A DNA stretch of 64,000 bases from Geosiphon pyriformis uo1. Lineage: Eukaryota; Fungi; Glomeromycota. The notes below the pieces were generated by a model. That model saw nothing but the letters and a program-made list of their open reading frames with translations. It was not told the DNA's origin and made no database searches. The stretch covers positions 132,976 to 196,975 of the forward strand of contig JAAOMT010000752.1 of assembly GCA_016748015.1 (NCBI GenBank), read 5' to 3'. Position 1 is the stretch's first letter; the number at the start of each line of letters is the position of its first letter. The position numbers and the translations under genes are program-made. This document shows, one piece after another, positions 15,444-57,924 of the stretch.

Positions 15444-16383
15444 TGTTACTTAAAGAAAGAAAGCCATCAAAAAAAGAAGAAAAAATGTGACCTGAAGAAA
15501 AACATAATAAAACATGAAGAGATATAGAATAGTGCGCAATAATGTTGGATAATGTGTTATAACATTGGATAATGTATTATAACATAGAATAACGCATTAT
15601 AATATAAGATAACATGTTATAACATGGGATAACATAAAATAATGTGTAATAATATTAGATAACGTGTTATAATATAGGATAATTAGTTATAACATAAGAA
15701 AAACAAAGTGATAGCTAACAAGAACAGATGATCCAAAGCAATCCTGTAAAACTAGAAAATACATATATATAGCAGTAGCATTAAAGACAGAAAGAAGAGA
15801 AGAGAAAAAAAAATTTTCTTAGTTATCATTCTCCAGTTAGAAACCATAGCATTTCAAAATATCAATAAATATACTTATTCAGCATCTCAAATCCAGTTGT
15901 TTGCTATTAATCCTAAATGGTAATAGTAATTGATACTTAAAATACACGGGAACAATAGTCTTTGATCATGGCTATTAACAGGATACTAACTTGTATTGCC
16001 TTGGCTTATTGTCTTTATTTTTTTTATCTTTTTTATTTTTTTGTCTTTATTTTGTTGGGTATACTAATTGATTAAGGATTAAAGTACTAAGTATTAATGT
16101 TAAGAATTGCCTGGTAAAAGACTTCTGCAAGTGGGTAGAATGCATAAGAATTACGAATTGCTTACCAGAGGATTGCTGGCCATTATGCTAAGAAAGAAAT
16201 TGACAGAATTGTGATTCCAGGAAGCTACAAAAAAAATAACACAGGTATCTCTGTCTATTATACAAAAAACTCCAATCAAAACCTTCTGATTGAAACATCT
16301 TTAAACATTACTAACATTATCAATTAAGCACCAAGTTATGGGTTTGTTATTTGCTTTGAGACTTCAAATAATCACTTATAATA
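15444..16383 (+). repeat. 5' LTR of element A
   Basis: TGTTAC...TATAATA (mutated TGTAACA); direct repeat of 33835-34775. The U3 has tandem ATAAYRTG/ATAACATRG repeats (15537-15695). Confidence 0.92.
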
Positions 16384-16402
16384 TTTGGTATTCCCTGTGA
16401 GG
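16384..16402 (+). promoter_or_regulatory. Primer-binding site of A (TGGTATTCCCTGTGAGG, mutated TGGTGCTCTC...)
   Basis: TT+TGG immediately after the LTR; the same motif follows the B and C 5' LTRs. Confidence 0.8.
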
Positions 16403-16445
16403 TATAATCCTACAGAAAACCAGCACCAACAACAATCATCCAAAA

Positions 16446-19400
16446 ATGGCAAAATCAGAAATCATAGGAGCAAACCATTTTGAATTCGCCAAATTCTTGT
16501 TTCAACAGTACAGCCAACAATTAGGATTAAACAACAACCATTTCTCAGTGGAATTAGCCTTTAACTTTTATGTCAATGATAAAATCACAGACTGCTTAGA
16601 AGGAACAGTTAACATTAAATCCACAAGAGAAAATTTCTATACAGAATTATTTCAACATACCAGCTTACTAAAAAACCACAGTTTCACACCAATCATCAGG
16701 AAAATCAATCAAATTATTGAAAGGTACACCCAACAACAATTCCCCATTACTTACACAGACAAAAGCAAAAGAAGATTGCAAACACCAGTGGTAACACCCA
16801 AAAAGATACAACCACCCACTTGGAGAAAACCAAAATTGAAGCACCAACCAATCCATTATATCATTATACACCAGAAAGTGCCATTAATATATTATCAGCA
16901 GACGCATTTACATTAAACATGACATTGATCTTTGAATAATTCCTATTTCAAAGTAAACAAAGAAGAGCAGAGTTACTAAGACCATATGGCGAATATTTTG
17001 AAGGATTTAAATTACGATTACTAACGCCATTAGGTTTTCAATTACCACCATCTTAACCAGATTTCAGAAATACAAGTCCCTGAGAAATAATGGAATTAGA
17101 AGAGGAGGAAGAAGAAAAAACTGAAGATCAGGAATTTACTTATCAGAATCCAATCACAGAAAATTCAGAAATTAAAACTTCGAACATTCAAACCCAACAA
17201 ACTCTAAATAATTTAAACCCAAGTTAATTAATCAGAAAAACTTATCTTCAATAATCGTCATTAATCAGCCACCAATTGTACTGATACAAGAACTAATTCT
17301 ACTACAGCCACTTCAGCAACCTATTCAATCACTGCTTTAACAACTCCAACAGCCATTGCAACAACCACAACCACAACAATTGAATTTGGATTCAATGGCC
17401 TACACTCCAATAGCAAAACTTAAAAAGTTTACTAGTGAAAAAGACAATGCCCAAATATGGCTCAACAACATTGAAAAGGCCATCACAGCAAATAGATGAA
17501 ATGATGCAAGAGCCCTCCAAGCCATCCCTTACTTTCTCCAAAATACTACCAATTCATGATATCAAAGTTTAGCCAACAAACCCCAAGATTTCAATGCATT
17601 CAAGCTTACATTCCTACAATACTTTAGTAATAATAATAGCATCAATTATTTGGCAAACACTTTTACTACCATTAAGCAAGGAAAAAATAAAGCAGTTACT
17701 ACTTATTTAGGACACTTTTACAAAAATCTGTTCCAAATTCAAGCCATACAGGCTGATTATTTCACAGTGCCACAAATCCTAAATCAATTCATTTGAGGCC
17801 TGCACAATAGCATTTTCCAACACATATGTCCAATGTACCCAGCAGATCTTCAAGCCACTATTACAAATGCCAGAGATTTTGAAGCAACTAAACTTAAAGC
17901 CAATCATGTCCAAGCCATAAATCTAGTAATGAACAAATCATCTGAATTGGATTCCAAATTGAAACAATTTAGTGATTCAATTAATCAGAAACTAGAAGAA
18001 TACTTAGCTAACAATCAAGCAATTTATTAGCCTTTACAATGATGTAATAATTCAGGAAACACAAATTGTTTCCAAAATCAGTCGCGTCTTTCATCATCAT
18101 TATCCAATTAGCCATGGCAGCAAGAGATGCATAGTTGCTACAATTGTGGTAAACAAGGTTACATTAGAGCTAGCTGCCGAGGTTATAGCAATAATCCACA
18201 ATCAGAGAATTAAAATCAAAACTCCGATCACAGATTTCAAACTCTGAACCACTATTCAAATTAAGATCACTATCAACTACACTACACTCAAATAGTACAA
18301 CAACCAATATACCAAACTCCAATACTAGTCATCTACCAGCCACAGCCATAAGTGATATATCAGCCACAACAAATTCAAACCCCATTACACCATTCAACCC
18401 AAACGTTACCTGAAAACCAAAGACCAAGAATTGTTCAGCAAAACTGGAGATTAGTGATGGTTGTACATTAACTGATCTCTAGTTCATCCAACCATGTCTT
18501 AGAATCATGTCCTAGAAATTTGGAAAATGGGTACAACCAAAATCAGAGTTCCCAGAACTATCTGAGTCTCTTGGTTGCCTCAGAAGATGCCTCGACCAAC
18601 AATGACCTGGAAACCTCTCCAAGACAAACAATCAATAACAACATACCTCCAGCCACCATCACAAATGACAAATTATTAGCAGCCATTTTTTTCTTCGAAA
18701 TTAAGGGACTAACTAAAACCCCTCTCTTTAGTGGAGCTGCCCTTGATACAAAACCCATTACTGCCATGTACACCAACACTAAAATCGATGGACAGGCCAT
18801 CAAGCTGATCCTAGACAGTGGTTCAGTAGGCAGCATTATCACATGACAACTCATGGACCAATTAGGTCACCAAGTTGATCATGCTGCCAGCGCCAGAATT
18901 ATCACTGCTAATGGAGCCACCAAAACTCTAATTGGTGAAATCGACAAATTTTCCATCGAAGTCAATGGTATCATTGTATTAATCAAGATTTTAGTCATAG
19001 AAGCCACCTAGTACCAAGCTCTTGTTGGTAATAACTGGCTGTTTAAAACCAATGCTGTGTTTAATTAGAACACCTAGAAGCTACAGCTCAGCCAAAATGG
19101 GCAGCATACTAGAGTACTAGTCACCTGTGGATACTTCAAGACCACTACAACCACACCACTAATTGAATTTGAGGAAGAAGAAAAAAAACCTACCTGGAAA
19201 GCCTATCAAGTTTTGTGGGCTGACACCAATCACAACAAATTACTGCCAATACTGTCTTGGGACAACAAAAGAAAAAGAAAAGAAGAAAACAAGCCACAAG
19301 AAGATATTACTAACAAAATTACCAGTGGCTGGGAAAGTTCCTATTCAACTGACACCAGACCAGAACCACTCTATATTCCACTCCAGTGCAAAGACTGTAG

Positions 19401-20147
19401 GAAAAAGTTTTCCTTCATGGAAGTTTGGGTTGTGTCTGACAAAGACTACTGAATGCGGATCCATTACTATTGCAAACCATGTCACCATGAATGCTACGGC
19501 TACTCAAAATGTTAAGACAAGTGGAACAATGAACCATGTCTTGCTTATGGCAAACAACTGCTCAATGAAGGGATGTGAAACAACATTTCTGGTCAAGAAG
19601 GAACCTGCAATGCATTATGTCAATACACAATTCTCATTAATGACTGGGTAAGTTGAGGAACCCCAATAACTGCAGCCTGGTATTGAGTGGTCTTTTGCCT
19701 AGATGGTTACTTACACAACAAAGATGAAATTTGAAGAATGGTCAATGCCAAGATAGAAGATGCTTTACTCAGTGAGATTTTAGAAATAAAGAACAATTCC
19801 CTTGAACCAATTAAAGTTGTTCTTATTCCTAATGCCTTTTTAGATATTGAGACAGGCCCAGAGAAATTTCATGATTACTACCAAAATTTAGCACTCATTC
19901 AAAAGGAACAAGAACAGTACTTGGAAAAAATAAACACCCAATTATGTGATCACTGTTTGATTCCATGTGACTTTCAATATTGTAATAAATGTGACTTCAT
20001 CTACAATCCAACACCATACAGAATCTACATAATTCTGGAAGAGAAAGAACCAATCAGCAGCTGCACATCAGAATTGGATTCAACTTTTAATCCCAATTTA
20101 AACCCCAATGATGATAACAACAATGGTTTCAGCTCCATTTAAAATGA
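16446..20147 (+). pseudogene. Element A Gag - aspartic protease - Cys-rich domain (5' part of polyprotein)
   Basis: Retrotransposon capsid motif (KFTSEKDNAQIWL..IEKAI), CYNCGKQGYIRASC knuckle, LILDSGS protease, CKDC/CKPC/CDHC..CNKC clusters. Confidence 0.88.
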
Positions 20148-21140
20148 TGTTACCAGTAGAATTTTAGCTATTAATTAGCATAAAATTATCCTTATAATTC
20201 TTATAATTCATTAGTATATTAATATCATTTCAAATTATTATTTATTATTTAATCAAGTATTACATATTACGATTCAATTAAAATAATCTAATTAGTATAA
20301 CAGAAAGTAAGATGATCAAATTACACAATACCCTGAACTTTGTAACATTCAAAAATTCGCCGAAATTTATAAGAAATTCGCCGAAATTTACAGAAATTCG
20401 CCGAAATTATGAATAGTTCATCCAAATTAATCAATAGTTCAGAAAAATAACTTGTAGTTTATCAAAATGTATCTTTAGTTTGCCGGAATTTGGGCAAAGA
20501 GAAAAAGTGCAAGTTCATAAACTAGTACTACAACAAGTTGTATAAAAGAAGAGCTTTTTTTCTTTTGGAAAATGTATCTTACTTTAGATTTATTACTTAA
20601 AACCATTTCTACACACACAAAAAGAAATAAATACCAAATAATTTGAAAAACCAAATTTTTTAATTATTGCCCTTAGAAAATCCCCAAAAACCAACTAACA
20701 TTTCGAAATTGATTAGCTACCAATTTCAGTAAACTGTTAGTGACTCCAGGCCTGGATAAAAAACGTTTCTCTTGACAAAATTCTATTTCTTTTACATTTT
20801 TTTTATTTTTTTTTATTTTTTTTACTATAATCATTAGGGTAGTCTACAGACAAGATTCCTGTAGAAGAGTTGACTTTTACAGCAAAGTAACTACACATTT
20901 TTAGTGAGCTTCTAGACAAGCAATTCCTGAGAAAGAGTTGACGTTTACTACAATGTAACTACATAAAGTAACTGGCAAAGAATTGGCCATTCCACTTATA
21001 AGCCCAGCAGTTCAAATTATAGGAGATAATTTGAAGATAAATTCAGTTATTGGAGGTTCAACTACTTCCTGAAAACGTGAATTCACAGCAAATTAACATT
21101 ACTAACATTTAAGAAAAGAGACCAAAAACCTCTAGTAACA
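20148..21140 (+). repeat. 5' LTR of element B
   Basis: Direct repeat of 28750-29741; tandem GAAATTCGCCGAAATTT units at 20352-20410; TATAAAAG at ~20541; followed by PBS TTTGGTGCTCTCTC. Confidence 0.95.
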
Positions 21141-24100
21141 TTTGGTGCTCTCTCATAGAAATAACACAACAACAACAAATTCAAAGTGGTGACCACACCA
21201 GACACAGCAACTCTAGAGTATTACCAGTCAATTTACACCCACTGCAAGCAAAAATTCAACATTCCAGACGGAATTGAAATTGTAAAGAAATCAGTATACC
21301 AATACATTAAAAACCGCATCAACAATTATTTTTTTGGAAACTACAACATTTCAGAAGTTAGAAGCAACCTCTACAATAATTTAGTGCACTATTCACAATT
21401 GGGAACAGAAGACCTGAACAGTGAAACACTTGCTACCTACTTCTAAGAACTTAATTTTAATATTATTAAGTATTGTAAAGAAAAATACCCAGTACAGTCT
21501 AAATACTTTTTTGACTTTGAATCAGAGACAAAAACAAGCAATAAAGGCAAACAAAGATTGAAACAATACTCAAGAACCACTCCAAACACTCCAACACTAC
21601 AAAAGACAACTGCCAAACACTTGCAAACACCTGAACAAGGAACCAGTGTCAAATTACCACTTTCTATTACACCATTTCCAATTTTACTTGTTCAACCACA
21701 AATACCAAGTTCACTACTTAGCCGTTTTTCCAGACCAGAAGATTTTTAGTCACTTAAAAATCCTACTCAACAGCAGGAACCAATATCAACAAGTGCCAAT
21801 ATCATTGATTACTTACAGGAAAACGAAAGTAATTACTCAGAAAGCTTGGAAAGTAAAGAAACTGAATCAGAACCAGAAGAAATTCCAGAAAACAAAGAAG
21901 AAATGGCAACTGCTTACATTGCAAAAATCCCAGAATTCACTGATAAAGACAATGATACCAGTCCCCAAGAATGGCTTGACAAAGTTCAAAAAGCAGGAGA
22001 TGCAAATGGTTGGATTGCAGCAAGAATGCTCAAAGCAATTCTCTACTTTCTCCAAGGAACAGCAGAAGAATGGTTTGAAAATTTAGAAGAACCATTTGAA
22101 AACTGGCAAACATTCAAAGATGCTTTTCTACAACAATTCACCAACAACAATACCTCTATCACTCTCAGAAACTGCTTTCACAATATCAAACAAGAAACAT
22201 CTGAATCTGTTATGACCTATTTTGGAAGATTTAACAAACTTCTCAGACAAATCTGACAATTGGAAACCAATAACTACTATTCTGATGCTCAAATTCTGGA
22301 TCAGTTTATAGCAAGATTAAAAGACAAACTGATTAAGAAAGTCTGTCCACATGCTCCAGCAGACTTAGCAACTGTTATTAGACATGCAAAGAGCTATGAA
22401 ATAGCAATAAAAGAAGCAAATCACACCAAGCTTGTAAATCTTGCAATTAGAAAAACCAGTTCAGCAGCTGAAAAAAAGATAGACCAACTCACAAAAAAAG
22501 TTGAAAGCTACTTCACAAACCAACAACAACAGCAACAACAACCACAAAGATATCAACCCCCACAATGACGCAACCAAAACAATTTTGGATCATCATCCAA
22601 CAACCAATCTCAAAATTGTCATTATTGTGGAATTCCAGGGCACTGGAAACGAGATTGTAGGAAATTACAAAGAGACCAACAAAACAGAAGTAATCAACGT
22701 TACTCTTCATTACAACAATCTTATTACCAATCTCTACCACCAACTTATTATTCACCAAAACCACAACATCAAAACAGTTACTATTCACCAGCTCCACAAT
22801 CAATGCAGCAATAATATCAGCAACCTTTACCAATTCAATCATATCAGACACCACCCACTCAACAATATCAAGTACCAGCAAGAAGATTGGTTCAACATAA
22901 CCAATCCACACTCCAAAATCAATTGCAGAATAACCACAACTGAATCAATCCAAATAACCAGTTGGTTCCCCGAAATTTGGGCCAGCAAAGACCCAATTAC
23001 TATCACACTCAACCCAGTTATCTTACAATACCAGAGGAATCGGATTTTCAACAAACTGTACTTTTTGAAGGTGAAATTGCAGCACCAAGATCAAACTCTT
23101 TCAACTACACTATTCCCCCAGCTCAAATTGCCCAAAATGCTAATCTGTCAGATATATTTCCATTTGAATTTGAGGCAAATAAATCACCATTTCTGCTTAG
23201 TAATGCAGCAGTCAATGAACAGAAAGCAATTACTGCCATGTACACAAAAGCTACAGTGGAAGGAAAACCCATTCGCTTAATCTTAGATAGTGGATCAGCT
23301 GGAAGTATCATCACTTACCAACTGATACAACAACTCAAACGAAACATAGACAGACCAGCTCAAACAGTTATTGTCACAGCTGATGGTATAAAGAAGACTC
23401 CAGTAGGAGAAATTGATGATTTCCCTTTTTCAATTGATGGAATCATCATTCCAGTTAAAGTTCTTGTTATGGATGCACCCCAATACCAAGCTCTAGTCGG
23501 AAATGATTGGCTTCTCAAGGCCAATGCAAACCTGAACTGGAAAACTCAAGAACTTAAAATCTCATACCAAGGACAATATACCATAGTACCTGCAACCTGT
23601 GGTACCTTTAACAAATGATCAGAAAAAGCTCTAGTATTTGAATTTGAAGAGAAGAAAGAAATGCCACTTACTGAAACCTACATGGCTCTTGGATCAACAT
23701 CCAATTGGGCTGAAGAAACCGAACAAGAGATTTTCAAAGAATCAAGAGGATGAAAGAAAGTTAGATATTCTACACCAGAACCACAGAAACAACCACTCTA
23801 TATTCCACTCAAATGCAAAGATTGCAACAAAAAACTTTCATCAATGGAAGCATGTATTTTTCCAGAAGAGGAATATGAAACTCGTACCTGTTACTTTTGC
23901 AAAGCATGCCATAGAGAACAATTTGGATCTCCAAAAAGAAATGGAAAATGAAACAACACACCTTGCCTTACATGTGGAGAAATACTACTAGAAGAATGCA
24001 ATTGGATTGATGTAGCAATGAAAAGATGAGTATGTAATCAAACCTGTTAATATGCTCTATCAATTTCGGAAAAAGTCAGAAAAAGGACACCATTTGATAC

Positions 24101-24530
24101 AGCATACAACAGTGCTCTCAATAAACTTTACTACTATCCTTATAATGCTGAAATGATTTTTGACCTAGCAATGGCATTAATTAATGGAGCCATTCAAGAA
24201 GATGTCTGCCAAATGAAAGAAGCTGAATATATTGAGTACACCATAAAATTAGCTGGATTTGATTATGAAGATGAAGTAGAAACCTACCACCAAATTGCAA
24301 GCCACACATATCCGACCAAAGAAGCTCAAATTCAACAATTAGAGCAAATGAACATTCAATTGTGTGAAGAATGTGTTATGTTTTGTGATGACCAATGGTG
24401 TTTAGAATGTTATGCTCTTAGCATTCCTCTGCCAGATGAGAATGATGAAAATAAAATCGAATTTGGAGTATCTGAACAAGTAGAAGAACTACCAACCACT
24501 CCTATCTATCTTCTTGAAAAGCAACCACCT

Positions 24531-24962
24531 TTACAATTTAAATATTTTGACAACCATGGCCAAGGAATCAGACCAGAAAAAGCACATGAAATTGATGCTG
24601 GATATGACTTGAGATACCCAGGAAAAGATACTTTGATTCTCCAACCAAAGTCTTTAACAAAAATCAATATAAAAATTGCTCTTGAAATTCCACCAGGAGC
24701 AATGGTTCAAATTGCCTCCAGATTATTATTGGCAAGCAAAAGAATCAATATTAGAGGAGGAGTTATAGATGCAGGATACACTGGAGACATTACTATCATG
24801 TTACAGAATGAGACAGACAAACCATTCAAAATTGAATATGCTGAAAAAATTGCTCAAGCAATTTACTTACCTTTAATCAACATTTCGGGTTTACAATCAG
24901 TAAACAACAGAGAACAATTGGGAAAAAGTGAAAGAGGAACTCAAGGTTTTGGTTCAACTGGA
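24531..24962 (+). CDS. dut: Trimeric dUTPase domain within element B polyprotein
   Basis: All five motifs are present: AGYDL, QIASR(LL<-SS)LA, GVIDAGYTG, KIAQAI, RGTQGFGSTG. Confidence 0.92.
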
Positions 24963-25318
24963 CGATTTACAGTTCCAGTAAACATAGTTCTTAATACACA
25001 AAATGAATCCCACCAGATTTTTCAACTTCCTCAGCCAATTACCATTTCACCTTTTGGAAAACATCACGAAATTTACACTTGCTCAAAACCCACCACTACA
25101 CAACAAATCTTTGAATCCAATGAACAAATCTGTTTGAAGCATGAAATATCAATTCCAAACGTTTATATTCCCAAAGGAATGAAAAAATTTTGAGTTACAT
25201 TCTACAACCCCAATAATTACCTTATTGTTTTATTAAACAAATTAGAAATTGGAATCATACACAGCAATATCTTTCAAGATGAAAACCCTCAAATTGTCTC
25301 TAATTTCATCGAAATTAT

Positions 25319-25768
25319 NNNNNNNNNNNNNNNNNNNNNNNNNNNNNNNNNNNNNNNNNNNNNNNNNNNNNNNNNNNNNNNNNNNNNNNNNNNNNNNNNN
25401 NNNNNNNNNNNNNNNNNNNNNNNNNNNNNNNNNNNNNNNNNNNNNNNNNNNNNNNNNNNNNNNNNNNNNNNNNNNNNNNNNNNNNNNNNNNNNNNNNNNN
25501 NNNNNNNNNNNNNNNNNNNNNNNNNNNNNNNNNNNNNNNNNNNNNNNNNNNNNNNNNNNNNNNNNNNNNNNNNNNNNNNNNNNNNNNNNNNNNNNNNNNN
25601 NNNNNNNNNNNNNNNNNNNNNNNNNNNNNNNNNNNNNNNNNNNNNNNNNNNNNNNNNNNNNNNNNNNNNNNNNNNNNNNNNNNNNNNNNNNNNNNNNNNN
25701 NNNNNNNNNNNNNNNNNNNNNNNNNNNNNNNNNNNNNNNNNNNNNNNNNNNNNNNNNNNNNNNNNNNN
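25319..25768. other. Assembly gap (450 N) covering most of the element B RT core
   Basis: Run of N; the flanks correspond to pre-RT and RT-thumb sequences of A and C. Confidence 1.
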
Positions 25769-26544
25769 AAAGTTAAATATTGAGAAATGTCACTTTGGAA
25801 AAACAAGTTTGATCTTTCTTGGACACATAGTTAGTAAAGATGGAATCAAACCAAATCCAGGAACAATCAATGCTGTCAAAAACTTTCAAACCCCCAGAAA
25901 TACTACAGAACTAAGAGGATTTGTGGGATTAGTCTCTTACTATCGAAAATTCATAAAAGGATTCTCAGAAATTGCCAAACCACTCAATTATCTTACCAAC
26001 AAAAACGTACCATACAAATAGACTGAAGAACAACAAAAAGCTTTTGAAATTCTCAAAACAAAATTGACAACAGCCCCAGTTCTTGCTTACCCAGACTTCA
26101 ACAAACGATTCCAATTAGCCACTGATGCCTCACACATAGCATTTGGTGCCATCTTATCACAATTGGATGAAAATGGCCAAGAACAAGTTATTGCCTATGC
26201 CAGCAGAACACTCAAGCCAACAGAACTCAAATATGGCTCAACTGAATTAGAAGCTGCTGCAGTTATTTGGGCTCTTAAACATTTTCAACAATATCTGAAA
26301 AATGGAAAAAAATTTGACATAATAACAGACAACATTGGCCTCAAATGGCTCAATAAAAAGAAAACTGAACAAAGTGCCAAACAGTCTCGATAGAATAACT
26401 TCCTAGCAGACTACAGATATATTGTACACCACAAACCAGGAAAACTACATACCAATGTTGATAGTCTCAAGAATGAGACAAGATTAGTACCAACAACAAT
26501 TCCACCACAACTTACCAACTTACCAACAAAATAACCAAACAAGA

Positions 26545-27917
26545 ATGAATCCCAGAAACTACAACAATCTTAAAAATTATTTGGAGACCCTTACTATGCC
26601 AGAAAACTGGTCTCCAAGTGAAAAACACCGCTTACAACACCAATCAAAACAATATTTCATACACCAAAACAAAATTTATTATAAAAATCACAGAAAACCA
26701 AACCAGTCATTCAGATTAGTACAAGAGAATGAAAAAGAAACAATTTTATACAACATGCACACAGATTCGTCTTCAGCACACTTGGGAAAAGAGGGAACAA
26801 TTCAAAGAACCCTTGAACATTATTTTTGGCCTCACATGCAAAAAGACATTCGACAATATGTAGAATCTTGTGATAACTGCCAAAAAAGAGGAGGAATTCG
26901 CCCCACAGAACCTTTAAATCCAATCAAAGTTGGACAACCTTTTGACAGAGTTGGAATTGATTTAGTCGAACCATTACCTATCACAACCCAAGAAAATCGT
27001 TATATTGCAGTTGTAGTGGATTATCTTACCAAATGGCCTGAAGTTAAAGCCATCCAAAGAGCAGATGCAAAATTCATCTATGAAGACATTATCTGTAGAC
27101 ATGGATGCCCAATTGAACTCTTATCTGATCAAGAAACACATTTTGTGAACAACTTGATACAAGAAATTTGTGAATGATTCAATGTCAAAGACCTCTATCA
27201 TCACCTTATCACCCTCAAACAAATGGACTTGTAGAACGTTTCAACAGAACATTGTGTGAATCTTTAGTCAAAGTTTCAACAGACTTTGAACAGGAATGGG
27301 ATATTTTTATTCCATCAGTGTTACTAGCATACAGAACACTAAAACAAGATACTATGAAACACACACTATTTGATCTTACTTATGGAAGGACAGCAACATT
27401 ACCAATTAATTTCACAGTGGAAACATACTCAGTGCAACCAATCAATGAAGAAAACTTTCAAGAGACACTCCAAAGAAGAGCCTACACTCTTCTTAGTACA
27501 CTGGAAGGAAAAAAAAGAATAGCAGCAGCTTATATTGAACATTCCCAAGCTCAACAAAAAGAAAGACATAACAACAAATTACCATCTATTACCAATGAAT
27601 TTAAAGTTGGAAATAAAGTTCTCTTACACAGAACTAAGGCTGAAAAACAATGGAGTGGGAAATTTGAAAACAAATGGGATGGACCATTTTATATTCACGA
27701 AATTCTAGGCAATAGATCATATAAGTTAAGACTTGATGACAAAATATTAGCAAAAGTTGCACATGGAGACAGACTGAAACACTATCATTCCAGAAACAAT
27801 CCTGAACCATTAATTCCACAAATTGGTACACATTCCCCTTTAATTAATCCTGAAAATATTCTCCGAAATTTAGAACCAATAATTATAATAGAACAACAAC
27901 CAAACTTGAACACTTAA
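26545..27917 (+). pseudogene. Element B integrase, separate ATG-initiated ORF (HHCC, DDE core, GPF/Y domain; no chromodomain), one frameshift near 27175-27190
   Basis: MH..SAHLG..CDNC; GIDLV, SDQETHF, VERFN; KWDGPFYI. Confidence 0.92.
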
Positions 27918-28060: not shown

Positions 28061-28715
28061 ATGAATATTCCCCGAAATATTCAACAAATAGCCCAAAAAT
28101 TAATGTTAGCCTTGAAAACACTCCCTAACTTATCTATAACGATTAATGGAAGTCAAATTAAATACATTCAGAAAGAAACCACAGCCCCAGTAGCAAATCA
28201 TTTACAAAATTATCACCCCTATAGAAGAGAAACAAGAAGTCACCCTGAGAATAGATTACCAAGACTTTTGAAGCAGGCACTAGAAGAAAATCTGCTAATT
28301 GCCCCTATTAACATTCCACCAAATGCTACAATGCAACAAAAACTACTACTATTTCTTAATGAACAGAACAATGAACACACCCCTATCTATAGATATGTTC
28401 AAATTGGAAAAACACTTTATGAACGAAAACTGGAACTTGAAGCAACAAATCTCACTCCTGAAGTTATACAAAAACAAATCTACAATGAATTCAAAACAGC
28501 AGCTAGATCAACAAACACTCGCTACAAACTTAGAGCAACTTTTAGACTCTATGATTTGTTTAATACTTGTGAAAATGTTCTACAAAATCCAATACTCGCA
28601 ATCAATGAAAGTCCAATACATTGACAAACTCACAGAACTGAAATTTCAACAATTTTCAGACCAGATTACTTCAATCATTTTAGATCACTATCTCAATACT
28701 ACAGATAGTGTTTGA
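28061..28715 (+). CDS. Element B ORF3, unknown protein in the env position (frameshift near 28595)
   Basis: 187-aa open ORF continued by frame 28299..28715; homologous to ORF3 of A and C (see findings). Confidence 0.75.
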
Positions 28716-28736
28716 ACTTCGACGGAGCTCAGTCTT

Positions 28737-28749
28737 GAGGAGGAGATTA
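28737..28749 (+). promoter_or_regulatory. Polypurine tract of B
   Basis: GAGGAGGAGATTA directly before the 3' LTR TGTTAC. Confidence 0.85.
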
Positions 28750-32116: not shown

Positions 32117-32146
32117 GAACACTTCAACCCAAAAATATAACAAAAG

Positions 32147-33437: not shown

Positions 33438-33819
33438 TGCTCAGGAGTGAAAAAAAAGACTCCCTCCAATATATTGGTTTTATAAAATTGGAAAACAACT
33501 AAACTTAGAAAACCCATATAGAAACTACAACCAGAAAACTTTCAACAAAGAAGCAATGCAACAAGTAGAAAAATTTGTAGAAAGGAACAACTTAACACTA
33601 CACTACAAGGCAGCATGTCAATTATACGTCACTTTTCAATATTGTTCAAATGTATTATTGGATAGATCTTTGAAAAAGATAACAGTCAACAACATAGAAT
33701 GAATGACCAATCAATAGTTTGAAGATCTACAAAAAGCCATAGTCAACATAACCATTAAACATTACACGAACGAAGTTTTATCAACAGACATAACCAATTT
33801 TACAGAAGCTCAATATTAA
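33420..33819 (+). pseudogene. Element A ORF3 remnant (C-terminal part)
   Basis: My translation: PPIYWFYKIGKQL...VEKFVERNNLTLHYKAACQLYVTF...FEDLQKAI...NFTEAQY*, which aligns with ORF3 of C and B. Confidence 0.7.
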
Positions 33820-33834
33820 AAAAAGAGGAGATAA

Positions 33835-47785: not shown

Positions 47786-48658
47786 TGTTACTTATAGAAT
47801 ATAGGAAATATAGTATTATTAGTCAGTAGATATTAGCCAATCAGAGGTAGATGTAGTAAATGTGGAATTTCAGAATTTCTCTTAGAGGAATTGCAGGATT
47901 CTAGAAATTTCAGAATTTCCCAACAAGGAATTGCAGGATTCCAGAATTCTAGGATTCCTCTCATCAGGAATTGCAGGATTCCTGTTGCAAAAAATTGAGA
48001 AATTGAGAAATCTCAATTATGTATATATAGCAGTAGTATTAAAAGCTAAAAAGACAGACCTCTCAGTTTAGATTTAATCTAAGCAACCTTTCAGTTCCCA
48101 ATCATCAAATAAATAATTATTCCATATCTCAACCCACTCTTCACTATCAACACTTCATGTTGATAGTAATTGATACTTAACCATGCTAGAACAATAGCTC
48201 TTGATCATGGCTATTGACGAGATACTAATGTACTAAATTGTCTTGGCTTATTTTCTCTATTTTCTTTATTTTTATTTTCTTTATTTTATTTTTTTTCTTT
48301 CTTTGATTTTGTTGTTGTATATTAATTGATTAAAAAATTAAGTGCTGAGTTATTGATGTCAAGGATAGTCTGGTAAAAGACCCAGAAATAAGGGTAGAAT
48401 TTTATATATTATCAGATAGCTTACCAGAAGGGCATAACTGCCAGACTAAATCCAGCCACCATGCTGAGAAAGAAATTGGAAAAACTCTTGGAAAGATACA
48501 TTTATTATTGACACTATTGAATCTCTGTCCATTATACAAAGAACTCCATCAAAATCTTCAGATACAACACTTACAGAACTTCATCAATGGAAGTAGTTTT
48601 TGAGCACCAAGTTACAGGTTTGTTATTAATTCAACAGCAGAAATAATCATCTGTAACA
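47786..48658 (+). repeat. 5' LTR of element C
   Basis: TGTTAC...TGTAACA; U3 tandem AGGAATTGCAGGATTCC repeats at 47864-47985. Confidence 0.92.
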
Positions 48659-48720: not shown

Positions 48721-51700
48721 GTGGCAGAATCAGAAATAATAGGGACAAACCATCTAGGATTTGCAAAAGCTTTATTTCAACAGTACAGCCAGCAGCTAGG
48801 CCTAACCAACAACTATTATCCAGCAGAATCAGCTTTCAACTTCTATGTCAATGAAAGAATCACAGATTTTCTAGGAAGACCAGTTGATATTGAATCAGCA
48901 AGAAAAAATTTCTATTCGGAACTAATCCAACACACCAACTTATCCAGAAATCACAGCTTTGCACCCATCATCAAAGAAATCAACCAAGAAATTGAAAGAT
49001 ATACACAAAAGACATTCCCTATTACTTACCAGGACAAAGGCAAAGAAAAACTACAGACACCAGCAGTAACACCCAAAGGAATACAAATTTCTAACTGGAA
49101 GAAACAAAGAATTGAATCTCCAATATACTCATTATACCATCACACACCTGAAAGTACCATCAACATCGTATCAGCAGACGCGTCCACCAGTACAAAGACA
49201 CTGCTAGCAAGAATTGCATTTCAGAGTAAACAAAAAAAAACAAACTATTAGGGGCATACAGCGATTATTTTGAAGGATTTAAATCGAGATTGTCAATACC
49301 ATTAGGATTCCAATCACCACCTCATCAGCCAGATTTTGGAACTGTCAGTCCCTAGGAAATTACTAAATCAGAAGAAGAAGAAAATGAGGATTAGGAATTC
49401 AATTACCAAAACCCAATCCTAGAAGACTGGAACATTCAAACTCAGCAACATTTAGAAAATTTGGAAATCAAAATGCCGAATATTCGAATTCTGCCAAATC
49501 AAAGAAATCAAAACCCCAAATTAATTAATCAGCAAAACTTACCTCTGGTAATTGTCATCAATCAACCACCAATTAATCCTATAGCCAAACCCATACAACA
49601 GCCACTTCAACTATCATTCCAACAACTAGTATAATAACAACTGCTTCAACAGCCATCACAACCACCTAACTTAGATCCAATAACTTACATACCAATTGCA
49701 AAACTTGACAACTTTACTGGTGAAGAAAATGATGCTTAAGTATGGCTGAATGATATAGAAAAGGCCATCACAGCCAACAGATGGAATGACGCCCAAGCAA
49801 TGCAAGCCATTTTCTACTTTCTCAAAGATACTGCCAATTCATGGTATCAGAGCTTGGTTAATAAACCACAAGATTTCAATGCCTTCAAAGTGGAATTCCT
49901 AAGATACTTCAGCAACAATAACAGCATCAATTGTCTAGTTAATATATTTACTACCATGAAACAAGGAGAAACTGAAGCGGTCACCACTTACCTGGGACAC
50001 TTCCATCAAAACCTGTGCCAAATTTAAGTAAATGATGCCAACTATTTCACAGCCCCACAGATACTCAACCAGTTTATCCATGGCCTGTGCAGCAGCATCT
50101 TGCAACATGTATGTCCGTTGCATCCAGGCATTCTTCAAGATACAGTCACACACGCCAGAGATTTTGAATCTGCTGAGTCAGAGACTAATCATGCCCAAGC
50201 TGTTAATCTAGTAATGAACAAATCATCTGAATTGGATTCCAAATTGGAGAAGTTCAGTAAGTCAATTAATAAAAGATTGGAAGAATACTTAGCTGACAAT
50301 CACACCATTTATCAGCCTCCACAACAATGCAATAATCAAGGAAACTCTAATCGTGCCCAAAATCAACCATGTTCATCTTCATTGACCAATCAACAATGAC
50401 AACAGGAAACACATATCTGCCACTATTGTGGTAAACAAGAACATATTTAAATCAACTGCCGTCAGCATTTAAATAACCAACAATTGGGAAATTAATATCA
50501 AAACCCCAATTGCTGGTTTCAAACTCTGAATCAGTACCCAAATCAAAACCAACCCACTTACCTACCAGTGATGCAGTCATCAGTCTATTAATCTCCAGTG
50601 TATCAAGCTCCAATCTATCAACTGCAGCCACAAGTAATTTATCAACAACCACAGTCACAAATAATCTATTAACCCCAACAAATCCAAACACCACTCCAAA
50701 GCTTACCACCCAACAGAACCCAAAGACCAAGAATAACTCAACAGAGCTGGAGATTGGTGATGGTAGTTCATCAACTGATCCCCAGTTCTTCACAGCAACC
50801 ATTTGGATTATGCCAGTGGAATTCGGGTGCTGGTCAACCCCAGAACCCGAATTCCCAAAACTATTTAAGTCTCTTGGTTACCCCAGAAGATGCTTCACCC
50901 AGCAATCAGGAACTCACCTAAAAACAACAAACACATACCAGCAATATTCCACCAGCAACAGTCACCAATGACAAATTACTGGACGCCATTTTTTCATTCA
51001 AACTCGAGGAACCGTCAACCATATCATTATTTAGTGGAGCCGCACTGGAAGAAAAGCCAATTACCATCATGTACACTGATGTGTAAATTGATGGCCATTA
51101 CATCAAACTAATTCTTGACAGTGGTTCAGCAGATAGCATCATCACATGACAACTTATGGATCAATTAGGTCGCCGAGTTGATCAAACTGCTAGCACCAGA
51201 ATCATTATGGCTGATGGAGTAACCAAGACTCCAATTGGTAAAATTGATAACTTACCAATCGAAATTAACAGCATCATAGTATCAATCAAAGTACTTGTTA
51301 TGGAAGCCACCCAATACTAAGCTCTAGTTAGTAATGACTGGCTGTCCAAGATGAACACCACTCTGGACTAGAATACACAAGAGCTCCAACTCAGCCAGAA
51401 CAGGCAACACACGTGAGTACCAGCCACATGTGGTTACTTCAAGGCTACCAACATTATGGCACCACTAATCGACTTCGAGAAAGAAAAACAAAAACCTACC
51501 TGGGAAGCCTACCAAGTATCATGGGCTGATGAAAAGCACAATGAACTGCCACCAATACTCTCTTAGAACAACAATGGGAAAGGAAAGCAAACAAACAAAC
51601 TTACCTGGGAAACTGACAATCTGACTTGGACTGACAATGAACAAGAAAAAGCCTCCAGTTGGGAATAGAATGAAGATAAAGAAAAAGAAAAAGGAATGCT

Positions 51701-54700
51701 ACCAACTGCCACTATTTATAATTCCTACATCCACCACACTCTACAACAATTCAATTATTGATGGCCAAGGCTTGTATGCATCGATTGCAGTAAGAAACTG
51801 TCGTTAATGGGTGCATGCTGTGGTGACAATGAGAAATACCACACCGCAACAAAGTTTTACTGTTGTCTATGCTTACTCGAACACTTTGGATGACCAAAGA
51901 AGCAAGGAAAATGAGATAACCAATCTTGTCTTGCTTGTAGGAAGACCCTGCTAGATGAAGGGATGTGGAATAACATCCCAAGATGTGGAAGAACATATGA
52001 CATGTCATGTCAATACATGATTCTAATAAGTGACTGGGTAAAAAAAAGAACACCAATAGAAGCAGCCTGGAGAAGAGCTGTGCAGCAACTAAACAGTTGT
52101 CCACATGACAATGACAAAATTTGGAGAATGGCAATTGACAAAATAAAAGGAGCAATACCCAAAGAGATCAGAGAAATCAAAAACAATCTACCAGAACCTA
52201 TCAAGCTTGACTGGAACACAGAGCCAGTCATAAATTTTCTGGAACCAGAAGAGTTCCATGAACACTACCAGAACTTGGCACTCACTAGAGAAGAGCAAGA
52301 ACAATGGCTAGCACAGTTGAATACAAGACTGTGTCACTATTGTTTAATTTCTAGTGACTTTGAATATTGTGATAATTGTAATCCCATTTACAATCCACTA
52401 CCATGCATGATCTACATAATCCCTGAAAAGGAAAAACCAATTAGCAGCTGCGCATCAGAATCAGAATTGCCACTCGATTCTAATTCAAACCCTGACAATG
52501 ACAATGACAAGAATAATAGTTCCAGCTCTGTTCAAAACAGCAATAACAATAACAACAATATCAACTCAGATTCAAACTCTGACTCAAACAATAAACAATA
52601 TATCGCGCTTCCTGACCTCATCAAAGAACAAGAACTGAAATGGTTCAGTGATAATAATGAAGGTATTATGTCAGAACACGTGCATGATACTGATGCAGGA
52701 TTTGATCTAAGATATCCGGAAACAGAAGCCATTAAATTGGAACCACATACACGCACCTGCATCGATTTGAAAATAGCACTGGAAATTCTAGCAACAACAA
52801 TGGTTCAATTAGCATTTAGGAGTAGTTTAGCGAAAAAAAAGATTAATATAAGAAGAGAAATAATTAATGCATAATATGTAGGAAATATTATCGCTATGCT
52901 ACAAAATAACTCGGAAAAGACTTATATAATAGAGCCCAATGAAAAGATAGCACAGGCAATATTTCTGCCTCTGGTTAGAGTAGCTCAGTTAGTATCAGTA
53001 GAAAAGAAAGAGGAATTAGGAATAACAGTGAGAGGAATACAGGGATTTGGGTTAACAGGTAGAATAGATATACCAATTAATATGGCGGAGGAAGAAATTG
53101 TTGACCAAGGAAAAATTATCTCAACCAGTCAAGCTATTTTTATTCCACCATATAACCAGTACATGCTAGCAATAAAAAGGAAGGAAAAAGACCAAGCACA
53201 AATTTTTGAAGCAGAAGCCAGTCTTTGTGAATTAGGAGAAGTTGGACTCATTAATCTTCACATACCAGCCAAAGATTACAGCCACATCAAAATTTCCATC
53301 TACAGCAACACAGGAAATGTTATAGTAATACCAGCCAGAATCATCATTGGATACTTAAACACTAAAATAAAGGATCAACTACCAAACTCTATTCCAGACT
53401 TTCCACAACTTTGTGGATATGTCAATATCACATCACAAACAATATACAGATGAAGTGAATGTTATTTGCTCCAACCAGAACAATTGGAACAAATGAACAT
53501 GGGAAACTTAAATCCACCCCAATGTATGCAACTCAAGATGTTGTTCAACCAGTTTAATGACATCTTTGCCAGTGAAAATAAGTTTGGCCGAACTGACATC
53601 ATCCAGCATCAGATCAAGATTGGAGATACAATGCCAATTAAAAAAAGAGCATACAGAATGCCACCAGCCAGCCATGAGATTATTTGTTAAGAAATAAACT
53701 GAATACTTGACAATGGGCTAATTCAGCTATTAATGAGTCCATAGTTATTACCAGTGATATTTATTCATAAGAAAAATGGAAAGATCCAATTTTGTGTAGA
53801 CTACAGGAAACTCAATAGTGTAACTCGTAGAAACAGCTATTCAACTTTATGGATACAGAAATTATTCAATGCTTTTGGCGGGAACAAATGGTTCTCAATA
53901 TTAGACTTAGACAGTGGTTACTAACAAGTGGCCATGGATTCAGCTGACAAAAAGAAGACAGCATTTACCACGAGAGAAGAGAATTTTGAATTTGAAATAA
54001 TGTCATTTGGTTTAACCAATGCACCAGCCACTTTCCAATGGCTAATTGAAATTGTCTATACTGGCTTATTGTGGAAATCAGTAGTTGTATACTTGGATGA
54101 CACCAATGTATTCTCAAAAACATTTGATGATCATCTTCATCATTTTCAACAAGTGTTTGAAAGACTAAGAAGAGCAGGACTAAAGTTAAATGCAACAAAG
54201 TGCTTCTTTGGCAAAACAGAACTAAAATTCTTGAAACATATAGTCAGCAAAGACAGCATCAAAACGGATCCAGAGAAAATAGAGATAGTAAAGAACTTTT
54301 CAGTGCCAACCAATATGACAGAACTGAAATCATTCTTGAGATTTGCCAGCTACTATTGACGTTTTATCAAGAACTTTTCCAAGATAGCGCAGCCACTCAA
54401 CCAACTGCAAACCAAGAATACAAAATATGAATGGACAGAAAGTCAACAAAAAGCTTTTAATATTCTGAAAAGAAAACTCATTCAAGCTTTAGTACTGATC
54501 TATCCAGATCACAGCAAACCATTTATCATCACCACTGATGCATCTAGCCAAACATTGGGAGCAGTATTATCTCAAAAAGAACCAGACGGCAGAGAACATC
54601 CAATAGCATATGCCAGCAGAGGTTTAACACCAGCCAAAAAGAACTATGGAACACTGGAACAAAAACACTTAGCAATATACTGGTTAGTCATGAAATGAAA

Positions 54701-54893
54701 AGAATACTTGAGCCAGAAGTTTGAAGTATACACAGATTACAAGGGATTAACATCACTCCAAAAACAAGAATTTGGAGATGGAAGACAGTCAAGATGGAAA
54801 ATGGCACTCACACCATACAATTATACTATACATTACAAAAAAGGAAAAGACAACGGAAATGCTGACGGTTTGTCATGAATGAGACAAATCTAA
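48721..54893 (+). pseudogene. Element C polyprotein Gag-PR-Cys-rich-dUTPase-dUTPase-like-RT-RNase H
   Basis: ORF pieces 49800, 50100, 51963, 52896, 53466, 53928 and the terminal TAA (54891) share one frame. LILDSGS, DAGFDLRY, RGIQGFG, YLDD, TDAS; ends ADGLS(R)MRQI*. Confidence 0.9.
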
Positions 54894-54955: not shown

Positions 54956-56338
54956 ATGAACATACAAAAATATCAACAACTTCAACATTATATAAACACT
55001 TAACAGTTCAAGGAGAATTTATCTCAAATGGAATGAAAGAGTATCAAACAACAATCAAAATATTTTATCACTCACTAAAATATATTTTATTAGAAAAATA
55101 GAAAAAATCTAGATCAACCAACCAGAGTAATTACAGAGCCAAAAAAAGAGACAATATTATTTAACATGTACTCAAATCTAACAACAGGACATTTTCATAA
55201 AGAAGCAACCATAGAAAGAACCAGAAAAAGATACTATTAGCCATCAATATATCCAGACATCATCCAATATGTTCAAAATTGTGATGCTTGTCAGTGAAGA
55301 AGAGGTACAAAACCCAGTGAACCATTAAGACCAATCAAAATAGAACAACTATTTGACCATGTTGGAATTGATCTAGTCAAACCATTAACAATTACCAGTA
55401 GAGGAAACAGGTACATAGCAATAGCCATGGACTATCTCACTAAATGGCCAGAGACGAAAGCAATTCAAAGAGCGGATGCAGAATCCATTGCCAAATTTGT
55501 TCATTAGAATTTGATCTGTCAACATGGATGTCCAAAAGAATTATTATCAGATCAAGAAACTTATTTTGTGAACAAAACATTAACAGAATTGAGCCAAAGA
55601 TTCGGAATTAAGAGACCACTATCATCACTATACCATCCACAAACCAATAGATTAGTTGAAAGATTTAACAGAACATTGTGTAAAGCAATAGCTAAACTCA
55701 GCCAAGAAAACCAGAACAATTGGAATTTGTTGATACCATCAGTACTATTTGCTTATTGGACAATGAAGCAAGATACTACACAAGCAACACTATTTGAATT
55801 AGTATATGGTAGAACAACAACACTACCAGTGGAAATAGAAGTCAGCACATACTCAACCAAATCAATAACAAAAGAGAATTTCAAAATTACATTGTTGAGA
55901 AGAACATATGACTTAATGGAAACATTAGAAAACAAATAATGAAGAACAGCTGATAATATACAAAAGTCACAAAAGAAACAAAAAAAAAGACATGATAACC
56001 AACTACCAGATAAACCAGTTGAATTCAGGATTAGAGACAAAGTACTACTACATCATACCAAAGCGGAAAAACAATGGAGTGAAAAATTTGACCCTAAATA
56101 AGATGGACCATTTTACATAGAAGAAATTCTAGGAAATGGAGCTTACAAATTAAGATTGAATAACAAAATCTTGACCAAAGCAGCACATGGAAATCAACTG
56201 AAACCATACCATCATATAGCATTATCATCTACCAGTAATATTTCACAATTAGAAGTACAGAGAATATTAGTCCAACCAGATAAAATTCCACAAGATCTGG
56301 AACCAATCATTATCATTGACAACAACATGTCCAATTGA
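54956..56338 (+). pseudogene. Element C integrase (separate ORF, out of frame with RT-RH)
   Basis: ATG MNIQK at 54956; GHFH..CDAC; GIDLV; SDQETYF; VERFN; DGPFYI. Confidence 0.88.
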
Positions 56339-56391
56339 TTGACAAAAGAATATATAAGAACATAGTCGACGTGACAGAAGAGATCAGAAAA

Positions 56392-57021
56392 ATGGAGATT
56401 ACAGACAATATCCATTCACTAGTCCAACAAATTTTTCAATTAATCCAACACCAGAAGATAGAAATTACTATCAATTAACAAACCATTCATTACAAAAATA
56501 CAGCAAAGATACCACAAAACAAAGCACAGAAAAGACTTAAAAATGTGGTCGACAAGATCATGACCAAGATAAAATTGGCCATGAAAGAACAACAAATAGT
56601 CAAATTACACCAAGAACTTACCAGAGAAACTTGGAATTGGTGGATACAACAATTTCCAAAAAACTATTGTTATTTTTACTTGGGACAACATGTAAATATC
56701 CAGAACTTGTACACCGACAAAACAAAATGGTTATTCAACATTATAGTATTGGGACAACTAGAACAATTTGTGGAAAAGAACAATCTAACCACACAAGTTC
56801 GAGCCATTTACTGGCTATATATGGGATTTTAAGACTGATCAGAAATCTTACTCAATACAGCAATGGATACAGTTACGAGTAATCAATTGGGAAAAATGAC
56901 CAATGCCCAATTTGAAAAACTACAAAATAAAATAACACAAGTAATACTTGAAAAAAAAGTTCAAGAAATAATCTAAGAAAAGGAATTAAAAGAATTAAAT
57001 TTTGACAGAGCTCAATATTAA
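56392..57021 (+). pseudogene. Element C ORF3 (unknown, env position)
   Basis: MEITDNIHSLVQQIFQLIQHQKIEITIN*QTIHY...YFYLGQ...VRAIYWLYMGF...FEKLQNKITQVIL...NFDRAQY*, in one frame with point stops. Confidence 0.75.
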
Positions 57022-57034
57022 AAGGAGGGGATAA

Positions 57035-57924
57035 TGTTACTCATAAAATATAGGAAATATAGTATTATTAGTCAGTAGATATTAGCCAATCAGAGGTAGA
57101 TGTAGTAAATGTGGAATTCCAGAATTTCTCTCAGAGGAATTACAGAATTCCAGGAATTTCAGGATTCCCCGACGAAGAATTACAGGATTCTAAAATTCCA
57201 GGATTCTTTTCATCAGGAATTGTAGGATTCTAGAAATCCTAGGATTCCTGTCGCAAAGAATTGAGGAATTGAGAAATCTCAATTATGTATATATAGCAGT
57301 AGTATTAGAAGCTGAAAAGACAGACCTCTCAATTTAGATTTAATCTAAGCAACCTTTCAGTTTCCAATCATCAAATAAATAATTATTCCATATCTTAACC
57401 CACTCTTCACTATTAACACTTCATGTTGATAGTAATTGATACTTAACCACACTAGAACAATAGCTCTTGATCACAGCTATTGACAAGATACTAATGTACT
57501 AAATTGCCTTGGCTTATTTTCTCTATTTTCTTTATTTTTAATTTTTTTATTTTATTTTCTTTCTTTCTTTGATTTTGTTGTTGTATACTAATTGATTAAA
57601 AAATTAAGCACTGAGTTATTGACATCAAGAATAGTCTGGTAAAAGACCCAGAAATAAGAGTAGGATTTTATATATTATTAGATAGCTTACCAGAAGGACA
57701 TGACTGCCAGACTAAATCTGACCACCACGCTAAGAAAGAAATTGGGAAAACTCTTGGAAAAATACATTTACTATTAACACTATTGAATCTCTGTCCATTA
57801 TACAAAGGACTCCATCAAAACCTTTAGATACAACACTTACAGAACATCATCAATGGAAGTAGCTTTTGAGCACCAAGTTACAGGTTTGTTATTAATTCAA
57901 CAATAGAAATAATCATCTGTAATA
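57035..57924 (+). repeat. 3' LTR of element C
   Basis: Direct repeat of 47786-48658; ends TGTAATA; carries about two more short repeat units than the 5' LTR. Confidence 0.92.

Follow-up and report, generated by a model that had tools for sequence, protein, structure and literature searches.

In the Metaviridae the integrase is encoded within pol, and an env gene is allowed as a third gene (PMC7879559). A dUTPase lying between protease (PR) and reverse transcriptase (RT) has already been published for fungal and rotifer elements, and so have third reading frames (ORF3s), according to the available portions of the papers concerned (PMC2864245, PMC5408684, PMC6431247). For arbuscular mycorrhizal fungi (AMF), surveys of transposable elements (TEs) record expansions of long terminal repeat (LTR) elements, at superfamily level only in their accessible text (PMC11952901, PMC11075540). 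Here we analyse a 64,000-nucleotide stretch of the Geosiphon pyriformis uo1 genome (the window; GenBank assembly GCA_016748015.1, contig JAAOMT010000752.1, positions 132,976 to 196,975, forward strand). Self-comparison of the window identifies three LTR pairs, all on the + strand, which delimit elements A, B and C. All three are decayed LTR retrotransposons and belong to a lineage derived from Ty3/Gypsy, in which the integrase occupies an open reading frame (ORF) of its own, followed by a further frame, ORF3. Features given below are on the + strand of the window unless marked (-).

In A, B and C, Pfam places the integrase domains (H2C2, rve and SH3) in ORFs separate from Gag-Pol. The stop codon that follows RNase H is at the identical position in all three elements, and also in their closest relative outside the window, L012. 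The integrase ATG lies 27–63 nucleotides (nt) past this stop, beyond an A/C-rich spacer (58 nt in B) that is free of ATG. The integrase ORF of B (26545..27917) has its own ATG and the HHCC, D-D-E and GPY/F-SH3 features, with a frameshift near 27189; that of A (32147..33430) begins at its own ATG, in frame with RNase H and behind two TAA codons; and that of C (54956..56338) has its own ATG in a frame other than that of RNase H, after a short duplication in the spacer. Among solved structures, Ty3 matches the integrase profile best (7q5b; E-value (E) 7e-48).

Relatives were collected by a DNA scan of metagenomes for integrase similarity, from which the best 80 of at least 577 loci were kept. Of the 80, 48 could be scored because they hold RNase H as well as integrase, and every one of the 48 is split; the frame offset from RNase H to integrase is 0, 1 and 2 in 12, 17 and 19 loci, respectively. 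Intact relatives, otherwise free of stops, are split as well, and 31 of 33 aligned integrase homologues have Met in the first alignment column. As judged from these sequences, the split is, like ORF3, an ancestral feature of the lineage and not decay, since the same stop is found in A, B and C, all 48 relatives are split and the Met is aligned in all three frame offsets. The integrase was originally predicted to be its own ORF behind an RNase H stop, and this holds in all three window copies and all scorable relatives. We are confident that the architecture and the clade are real.

A protein search restricted to 224–714 residues returned 619 homologues, of which the 120 listed are 316–438 amino acids (aa) long. 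Because this length restriction makes the search blind to fusions, DNA loci were examined instead. Three of the 120 are named from Rhizophagus irregularis, in which intact integrases of 419–430 aa are annotated. No chromodomain is present in the window integrases or in the 120 listed homologues, and IMG/VR gave distant integrase matches only. As a control independent of integrase, 87 loci were picked by RT, 65 of them scorable: 62 are fused and 3 split, with 6 having the integrase upstream and 16 being unscorable. L111 is split, has the aligned Met and falls inside the clade; L144 and L151 each show a single in-frame stop and have fused neighbours. A search of longer proteins gave 85 matches, four of them Glomeromycotina models and the other 81 at no more than 36% identity; two Glomeromycotina models, P0156 and P0226, have no intact RT. 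Gene predictors join these ORFs, so that the elements are mis-annotated. One lineage member, P0293, carries the annotation of an Acidobacteria metagenome-assembled genome, and L085–L163 are eukaryotic LTR retrotransposons on contigs binned into GTDB genomes of numerous bacteria and archaea, both instances of binning contamination.

In the RT-RNase H tree (60 rows, thinned) the split rows lie on one side of a branch with support of 81/93; SH-like support is 93 with 102 rows, and 98 with 132 rows rooted on three distant RTs. The window RTs are nested among fused Ty3/Gypsy elements. The integrase tree (53 rows, near-copies dropped) recovers the split clade at 100/99, and groups A, B, C and L012 together, also at 100/99. 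A free integrase and ORF3 can be taken as the marks of the lineage, which is likely to be native to the mycorrhizal Glomeromycotina.

ORF3 lies at 33436..33820 in A (core only, the 5' part being missing), 28061..28769 in B, where it has a frameshift near 28598 and runs through the polypurine tract (PPT) into the 3' LTR, and 56326..57020 in C. Among 49 loci with at least 500 nt past the integrase, 40 have an ORF of at least 100 codons; 35 of these form one family and five are unrelated. A profile built from 31 metagenome ORF3s alone reaches E 1e-4 with window element A (at 33436–33765) and E 2.5e-5 with a B-family protein, and the ORF3s of B and C connect both pairwise and via L012 (E 1e-8 and 7e-13). 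The conserved ORF3 of the original prediction is thus a single family across relatives, but between the window copies the resemblance is only remote: 25–33% identity over about 100 residues among A, C and the B-family protein. The ORF3 of B is 85% identical to a Geosiphon pyriformis model. ORF3 is under purifying selection, with synonymous differences of 0.67–0.98 and non-synonymous differences of 0.27–0.44 in 17 pairs, the synonymous values being near saturation at protein identities of 42–60%.

The ORF3 proteins are 140–240 aa long, and the predicted structure of one from a relative, L018 (not a window copy), is all-helical (pLDDT 96.6). Gly, aromatic and several Arg/Lys positions are conserved, which suggests binding of nucleic acid or protein. 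The 34 members have no Pfam family in common, with a single weak match to DUF1016_N (E 0.037); comparison with solved sequences gave nothing below E 0.18, and PHROG gave matches of unknown function only. For the L018 model, Foldseek found no match at E 0.001 in PDB or BFVD, and the best Z from VIA was 4.5. ORF3 is therefore without a fold match, although the absence of a match is no proof of a new fold. There is no membrane segment, no 19-residue hydropathy window exceeding 1.32 in 34 sequences. An identity as env was dropped for want of a membrane segment, because the model is all-helical and because no env or capsid fold was matched; with neither a membrane segment nor an env or capsid fold, the description 'retrovirus-like' that was first given to the lineage is not supported. 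A language-model match to a Closterovirus-type coat protein (0.91; 152 shared features, of low recognition value) was not repeated with intact ORF3, did not appear in the fold-search lists and was dropped. A short DNA block just 5' of the PPT recurs throughout the lineage (28712–28749, 56997–57034 and 33797–33834 in the window; also L009, L012, L018, L026 and L071). ORF3 often extends through this block into the LTR, and since the block is conserved in different reading frames it is probably cis-acting.

Several features bear on how the integrase is made. A purine at -3 together with G at +4 is found at 57 of 67 integrase starts, compared with 74 of 394 internal ATGs; this count leaves out loci without an aligned ATG, loci too near a contig end, and L055. 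At 45 junctions, the two ORFs overlap or are no more than 2 nt apart in 10, are separated by 3–200 nt in 28, and by longer distances in 7. The 27 spacers of up to 165 nt contain 3 ATGs compared with 18.4 expected, a value as low being reached in 0 of 1000 dinucleotide shuffles, and the depletion is unchanged after thinning to 23 spacers. Dinucleotide shuffles were used since single-base shuffles are confounded by composition (GTA is also rare). Start context, spacers and aligned Met together make it very likely that the integrase starts at its own AUG.

In 24 of the 80 loci a covarying RNA motif of two helices lies 5' of the integrase AUG (for example L042:1130–1166). Its cells are paired in 96.7% of cases and double changes occur in 7 of 12 pairs, values for slid controls being far lower, although the structure was derived from the same sequences and the controls therefore lean in the hairpin's favour. 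The motif lies 3–32 nt 5' of the AUG (exactly 3 nt in 13 of 23) and has a conserved, purine-rich bulge of 12 nt; a search of Rfam with 20 loci gave no relevant match. It is a candidate for internal ribosome entry, an exonuclease block or a ribozyme. A second spacer type, of 75–97 nt, has repeated TTAAC-type and GGACAC-type words (L001–L008, L010, L014 and L041) and yields no consensus structure; it could possibly be an internal promoter.

Within a single frame, the Gag-Pol of these elements shows the Pfam domains Retrotrans_gag, zf-CCHC, protease, dUTPase, RVT_1 and RNase H in this order, the integrase not being in that frame. Ty3_capsid also matches within gag, zinc knuckles are present in A, B and C, and the catalytic motifs are preserved. 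In C (48721..54893) an N-terminal extension, beginning at GTG 48721, is followed by the capsid, zinc knuckle (50418), protease (51114), a Cys block (51765–52403), dUTPase (52626–53072), a β-rich block (53070–53429), RT (YLDD at 54090), RNase H and the stop. Its frame is unbroken by shifts from 49230 to 54887 (1886 codons with 31 stops); the N-terminal 160 codons are in a different frame, with a frameshift near 49220. In B (21186..26486) the N-terminal extension and capsid are followed by the zinc knuckle (22617), protease (23283), Cys block (23805–24446), dUTPase (24534–24974) and β-rich block (24972–25316), and RNase H leads to a TAG at 26484–26486 after a small terminal frameshift. One frame runs from 21102 to a gap of 450 N (25319–25768) that hides most of the RT and where C has 789 nt, with 16 stops in 1805 positions in all; across the gap the frame is unreadable, and the RT of B was omitted from the RT trees. 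The Gag-Pol of A, frameshifted several times, is in two parts, the left (16446..20143) comprising the N-terminal extension, capsid, zinc knuckle (18136), protease (18811) and Cys block (19378–20040), and the right (29746..32116) the dUTPase (29823–30265), β-rich block, RT (YLDD at 31317), RNase H and stop. Only 1 of 46 stop positions is common to B and C, and in that column A and a database relative have Trp, so that Gag-Pol contains no programmed stop or shift. The single-frame Gag-Pol of the original prediction can be read in C (from 49230) and in B as far as the gap, but not in A.

The Gag frame starts with GTG in strong context in B (21186), C (48721) and all four Geosiphon models, and with ATG only in A (16446). 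No ATG lies upstream of the GTG, the first in B being at 21903, at the capsid, and a GUG-initiated N-terminal extension of about 240 codons is possible. Compared pairwise, the extensions of B and C did not match.

The insert between PR and RT was correctly predicted to include a dUTPase and a Cys-rich domain. The dUTPase is of the trimeric class (Pfam E 5e-19 and 8e-15), matches 69 solved sequences and shows the five motifs of that class in recognisable form. Its best matches, at 33–40% identity, are spread over phages and cells and point to no single donor. CxxC pairs in the Cys block are conserved in 18 aligned rows, and the block likely binds zinc; it matches no Pfam or PHROG family. After the dUTPase comes a conserved, β-rich block of about 115 residues, which had been taken for a second, dUTPase-like domain. 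The block is real, but its tie to dUTPase is unproven (hhalign probability 3.7%); its structure model (pLDDT 43.6) is too poor for a fold search, no solved sequence matched, and its profile matches P0182, a fused Gypsy Pol, in the region before RT (E 3e-5). With the Cys-dUTPase region as query, all 24 matches are Geosiphon pyriformis models (35–71% identity), and neither dUTPase nor Cys block occurs in any of 21 relatives that span PR to RT. This distribution marks them as a capture by the window's Geosiphon sub-lineage, a local addition.

Gag and Pol are coupled in three ways within the lineage: in frame (for example L037, L044 and L046), by a -1 slippery site (a slippery heptamer in 5 loci), and by an in-frame TGA-CTA between protease and RT in 8 loci (L016:2500, L019:2884, L025:872, L051:88, L055:904, L061:3292, L064:47 and L077:782). 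We take UGA-CUA here to be a readthrough signal, in which case stop-codon readthrough is likely placed after the protease, not after Gag. Given these three states and the confinement of dUTPase and Cys block to Geosiphon models, the whole combination of features does not define the lineage as had been proposed. There are further captures: L072 has a thymidylate-kinase-like P-loop domain after RNase H (2348–3013; E 4e-5, under the curated cut-off), and the third ORF is replaced by a Nudix hydrolase in L040 (1876–2886) and by a helix-turn-helix protein in L007 (6522–6941). Captures related to nucleotide metabolism (dUTPase, thymidylate-kinase-like, Nudix) thus recur across the lineage. Pol tails of 220–345 residues with Cys/His motifs follow RNase H in L023, L026, L037, L046, L049, L057 and L065; these tails, in the sub-clade that has the hairpin, gave no Pfam match.

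Each element has TG..CA-type LTR ends, a primer binding site (PBS)-like site beginning with TGG, a PPT and a 4-bp target site duplication (TSD). Element A has LTRs at 15444..16383, followed by the PBS-like site, and 33835..34775, preceded by the PPT, with TSDs ATGG (15440–15443) and ATAG. Those of B are at 20148..21140 and, behind its PPT, 28750..29741, with TSDs ATGA at 20144–20147 and 29742–29745; those of C are at 47786..48658 (PBS-like site at 48661) and, again behind a PPT, 57035..57924, with TSDs TCAT and TTGT. The TSDs of B match exactly, and those of A and C are mismatched by transitions only. B is inserted in the Pol of A, between the Cys block and dUTPase. Sister LTRs are 86.8% identical in A, 96.2% in B and 90.7% in C (K2P 0.153, 0.036 and 0.082), the closer pair in B being as expected from its nesting in A. 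LTR pairs, TSDs and domain order agree in confirming three insertions with one layout. The original division into at least two families, B against A and C, captured the divergence of B, but A and C are not one family: their LTRs have common sequence only in the 3' half (68%) and their ORF3s differ, so that there are three.

The window has high AT and low CpG. Between sister LTRs 219 transitions and only 5 transversions are counted, with differences peaking at CpG (55 of 84, 0.65) and at 0.15–0.29 in other contexts. Near-exclusive transitions in all contexts indicate that the copies are heavily deaminated; the deamination extends beyond CpG, possibly through a process like repeat-induced point mutation. 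Most of the remaining window is occupied by a LINE-like family (RRM-like ORF1, endonuclease, RT and RNase H), with copies at 41400–47780 (-) and 6700–13100 (+) and more decayed ones at 1391–5833, 34781–40304 and 61985–64000. A reversed partial LTR akin to those of A and C lies within a LINE copy at 37058–37543 (-), a piece at 5933–6176 resembles the U3 repeats of A, and 800–1249 forms an inverted pair (87%) with 6293–6739.

Taken together, the best explanation, and one that we consider somewhat more probable than all others combined, is that these are split Ty3/Gypsy-derived elements whose integrase is made free, from its own AUG on the full-length RNA, by reinitiation or internal entry. Several points weigh against it. 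All three window copies are decayed, and in A and, before the small frameshift, in B the integrase AUG shares the frame of RNase H, which taken alone is compatible with a fused Pol having deaminated codons. Two Glomeromycotina proteins, P0154 and P0155, appear fused; segments of RT or RNase H are missing from both, as is the N-terminus of the integrase, which would fit stitched gene models, and P0155 matches the split locus L072 in three frames. RT support for the split clade is only moderate, an AU test does not reject a placement of the window RTs beside two fused elements (p 0.074), and the integrase tree is partly circular, the loci having been picked by integrase similarity. The original prediction had proposed RT and integrase phylogenies; both recover the clade, but with outgroups that are unnamed or database-named proteins, named Ty3/Gypsy reference clades from GyDB, Repbase or REXdb being absent. 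At the start codon, G at +4 is partly due to a conserved Asp/Glu as second residue. Seven of the 45 spacers exceed 200 nt and contain 2–27 ATGs (some are decayed Pol tails), so that simple reinitiation could not cross them. Finally, the hairpin is absent from the window elements, the best window match (E 0.37; 837–894 (-)) being away from any junction.

That the elements are ordinary fused Gypsy elements, with split and ORF3 produced by C-to-T decay, would fit the predominance of transitions and the in-frame stops of B (16) and C (31). This reading is largely refuted, and we give it next to no weight: the split is seen in intact relatives that have no further stops, stops from decay hardly ever coincide between copies whereas the one after RNase H is common to three families, and ORF3 is under purifying selection. 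It is scarcely more probable that the integrase is still a Pol fusion made by stop readthrough or a junction frameshift. The in-frame AUG of A, L012 and ancestrally B, and the recoding signals that the lineage uses elsewhere (UGA-CUA and the slippery heptamer), are in its favour, but two stops lie in frame in A, no more than 12 of 48 junctions keep the frame, gaps range from overlap to more than 400 nt with no common readthrough or slippery signal at the junction, and the integrase Met is aligned everywhere. A more serious competitor, though in our view a less likely one than the best explanation, has integrase and ORF3 translated from subgenomic RNAs of their own, arising from an internal promoter, splicing, or exonuclease trimming to the hairpin. 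An AUG-free leader and strong start context would suit a 5' untranslated region equally well, long ATG-containing spacers occur, one sub-clade has repeated, unstructured spacer motifs with no consensus fold, and ORF3s typically come from spliced messages, as stated in the accessible part of PMC5408684. Set against this, 10 of 45 junctions overlap or abut and leave no non-coding room, there is no acceptor motif common to the sub-clades, and in 2 of 20 rows the AG in the 3' arm of the hairpin and its pairing partner change together, as in a paired stem and not a splice acceptor. As the route we favour reinitiation or internal entry, both from the full-length RNA, over subgenomic RNAs, with the chances for and against it about equal.

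For split elements with a free integrase, a mechanism can be sketched in which the particle, protease and priming roles follow established Ty3 biology. Gag-Pol would build the particle and be cut by the protease, and copying of the RNA would be primed by a tRNA at the PBS and by the PPT, with the dUTPase limiting uracil in the cDNA. Ribosomes that stop after RNase H would reinitiate at, or be recruited internally to, the integrase AUG, and again at ORF3; in one sub-clade, the dedicated hairpin just 5' of the integrase AUG would serve this entry. Free integrase, untethered to Gag, would have to reach the cDNA by RNA binding, the route by which foamy-virus Pol reaches the particle, or after the particle opens. 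The ORF3 protein, soluble and helical and with Arg and aromatic positions conserved, would be the likeliest helper or regulator. More tentatively, the lineage may be an unrecognised, old and diverse branch of LTR retroelements in mycorrhizal fungi, with a polycistronic programme on one RNA (recoding between Gag, protease and RT, then reinitiation or a compact IRES-like hairpin) and a new-fold ORF3 that delivers or controls the free integrase. If true, this would break the rule that integrase enters the particle inside Pol, and the branch would merit its own genus.

In standard Ty3/Gypsy elements the place of integrase within pol provides its route of packaging with the RNA that is later inserted; a clade with free integrase raises the question of how the enzyme is made and how it finds the cDNA. 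Beyond this, the lineage provides a covarying RNA motif of 40 nt without Rfam match, a small protein without fold match and natural variation in recoding signals, and its intact copies are already annotated in the laboratory strain of R. irregularis. LTR elements account for 41.2% of the Geosiphon genome in the accessible text of PMC11952901, and this lineage may make up much of that. The available text of PMC5911963, PMC4427930, PMC5890265, PMC6839031, PMC10224137, PMC2774666 and bioRxiv 10.1101/2023.09.13.557621 describes no Gypsy element with a separate integrase. Within the literature searched, we found no Gypsy element described as having an integrase ORF of its own, although Repbase, GyDB, AMF TE libraries, the Geosiphon genome paper and supplements may hold such elements; to that extent the lineage with stand-alone integrase and ORF3 is, as predicted, undescribed.

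With the Metaviridae (genus Metavirus, Saccharomyces Ty3) these elements share LTRs, PBS, PPT, a capsid with zinc knuckle, and the order PR-RT-RNase H-integrase (PMC7879559). They differ in that the integrase is outside pol, the third gene is not env and there is no chromodomain. An integrase outside pol and a non-env third gene make them Ty3/Gypsy-derived and Metaviridae-like, but not canonical members. In Errantivirus and other env-bearing elements the third gene is env, with surface and transmembrane domains, in contrast to the short ORF3, without membrane segment, seen here. The chromoviruses with dUTPase (PosPlaTy3-5 of Postia, elements of Phanerochaete, and Tmt1 of Tuber, all fungal) have it between PR and RT, as the available text of PMC2864245 describes, but the present elements have no chromodomain, a separate integrase and an ORF3. 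Juno, Vesta and TelKA of bdelloid rotifers and planarian Burro are LTR elements that likewise have their dUTPase between PR and RT, a further zinc knuckle close to RT and a non-env ORF3, and Vesta1b also has no gag-pol frameshift; in the accessible portions of the same papers, however, their pol is described as including the integrase, and their ORF3s are env, a GDSL esterase or a DEDDy exonuclease, none of which is matched by ORF3 here (PMC5408684, PMC6431247).

Integration enzymes outside the usual place are found in other systems. The DIRS elements have theirs in its own ORF, according to the available text of PMC5890265. That enzyme is a tyrosine recombinase and the terminal repeats are of another kind, whereas a DDE integrase, direct LTRs and 4-bp TSDs are present here. 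Foamy viruses, which provide the second-best solved match to the integrase (E 7e-31), are similar in that their enzymes are uncoupled from Gag. Foamy Pol is one PR-RT-integrase protein from a spliced mRNA; in the present elements the integrase alone is split off. In Gmr1-type elements a Gypsy-type integrase precedes RT, as it does in 22 of the 85 longer homologues, but the Gmr1-type rows form their own clade, and here the integrase is downstream of RT. Ginger elements likewise have a Gypsy-type integrase outside the usual place, but are DNA transposons without RT in the accessible text of PMC6839031, whereas the integrase of A, B and C lies between RNase H and ORF3, within the LTRs.

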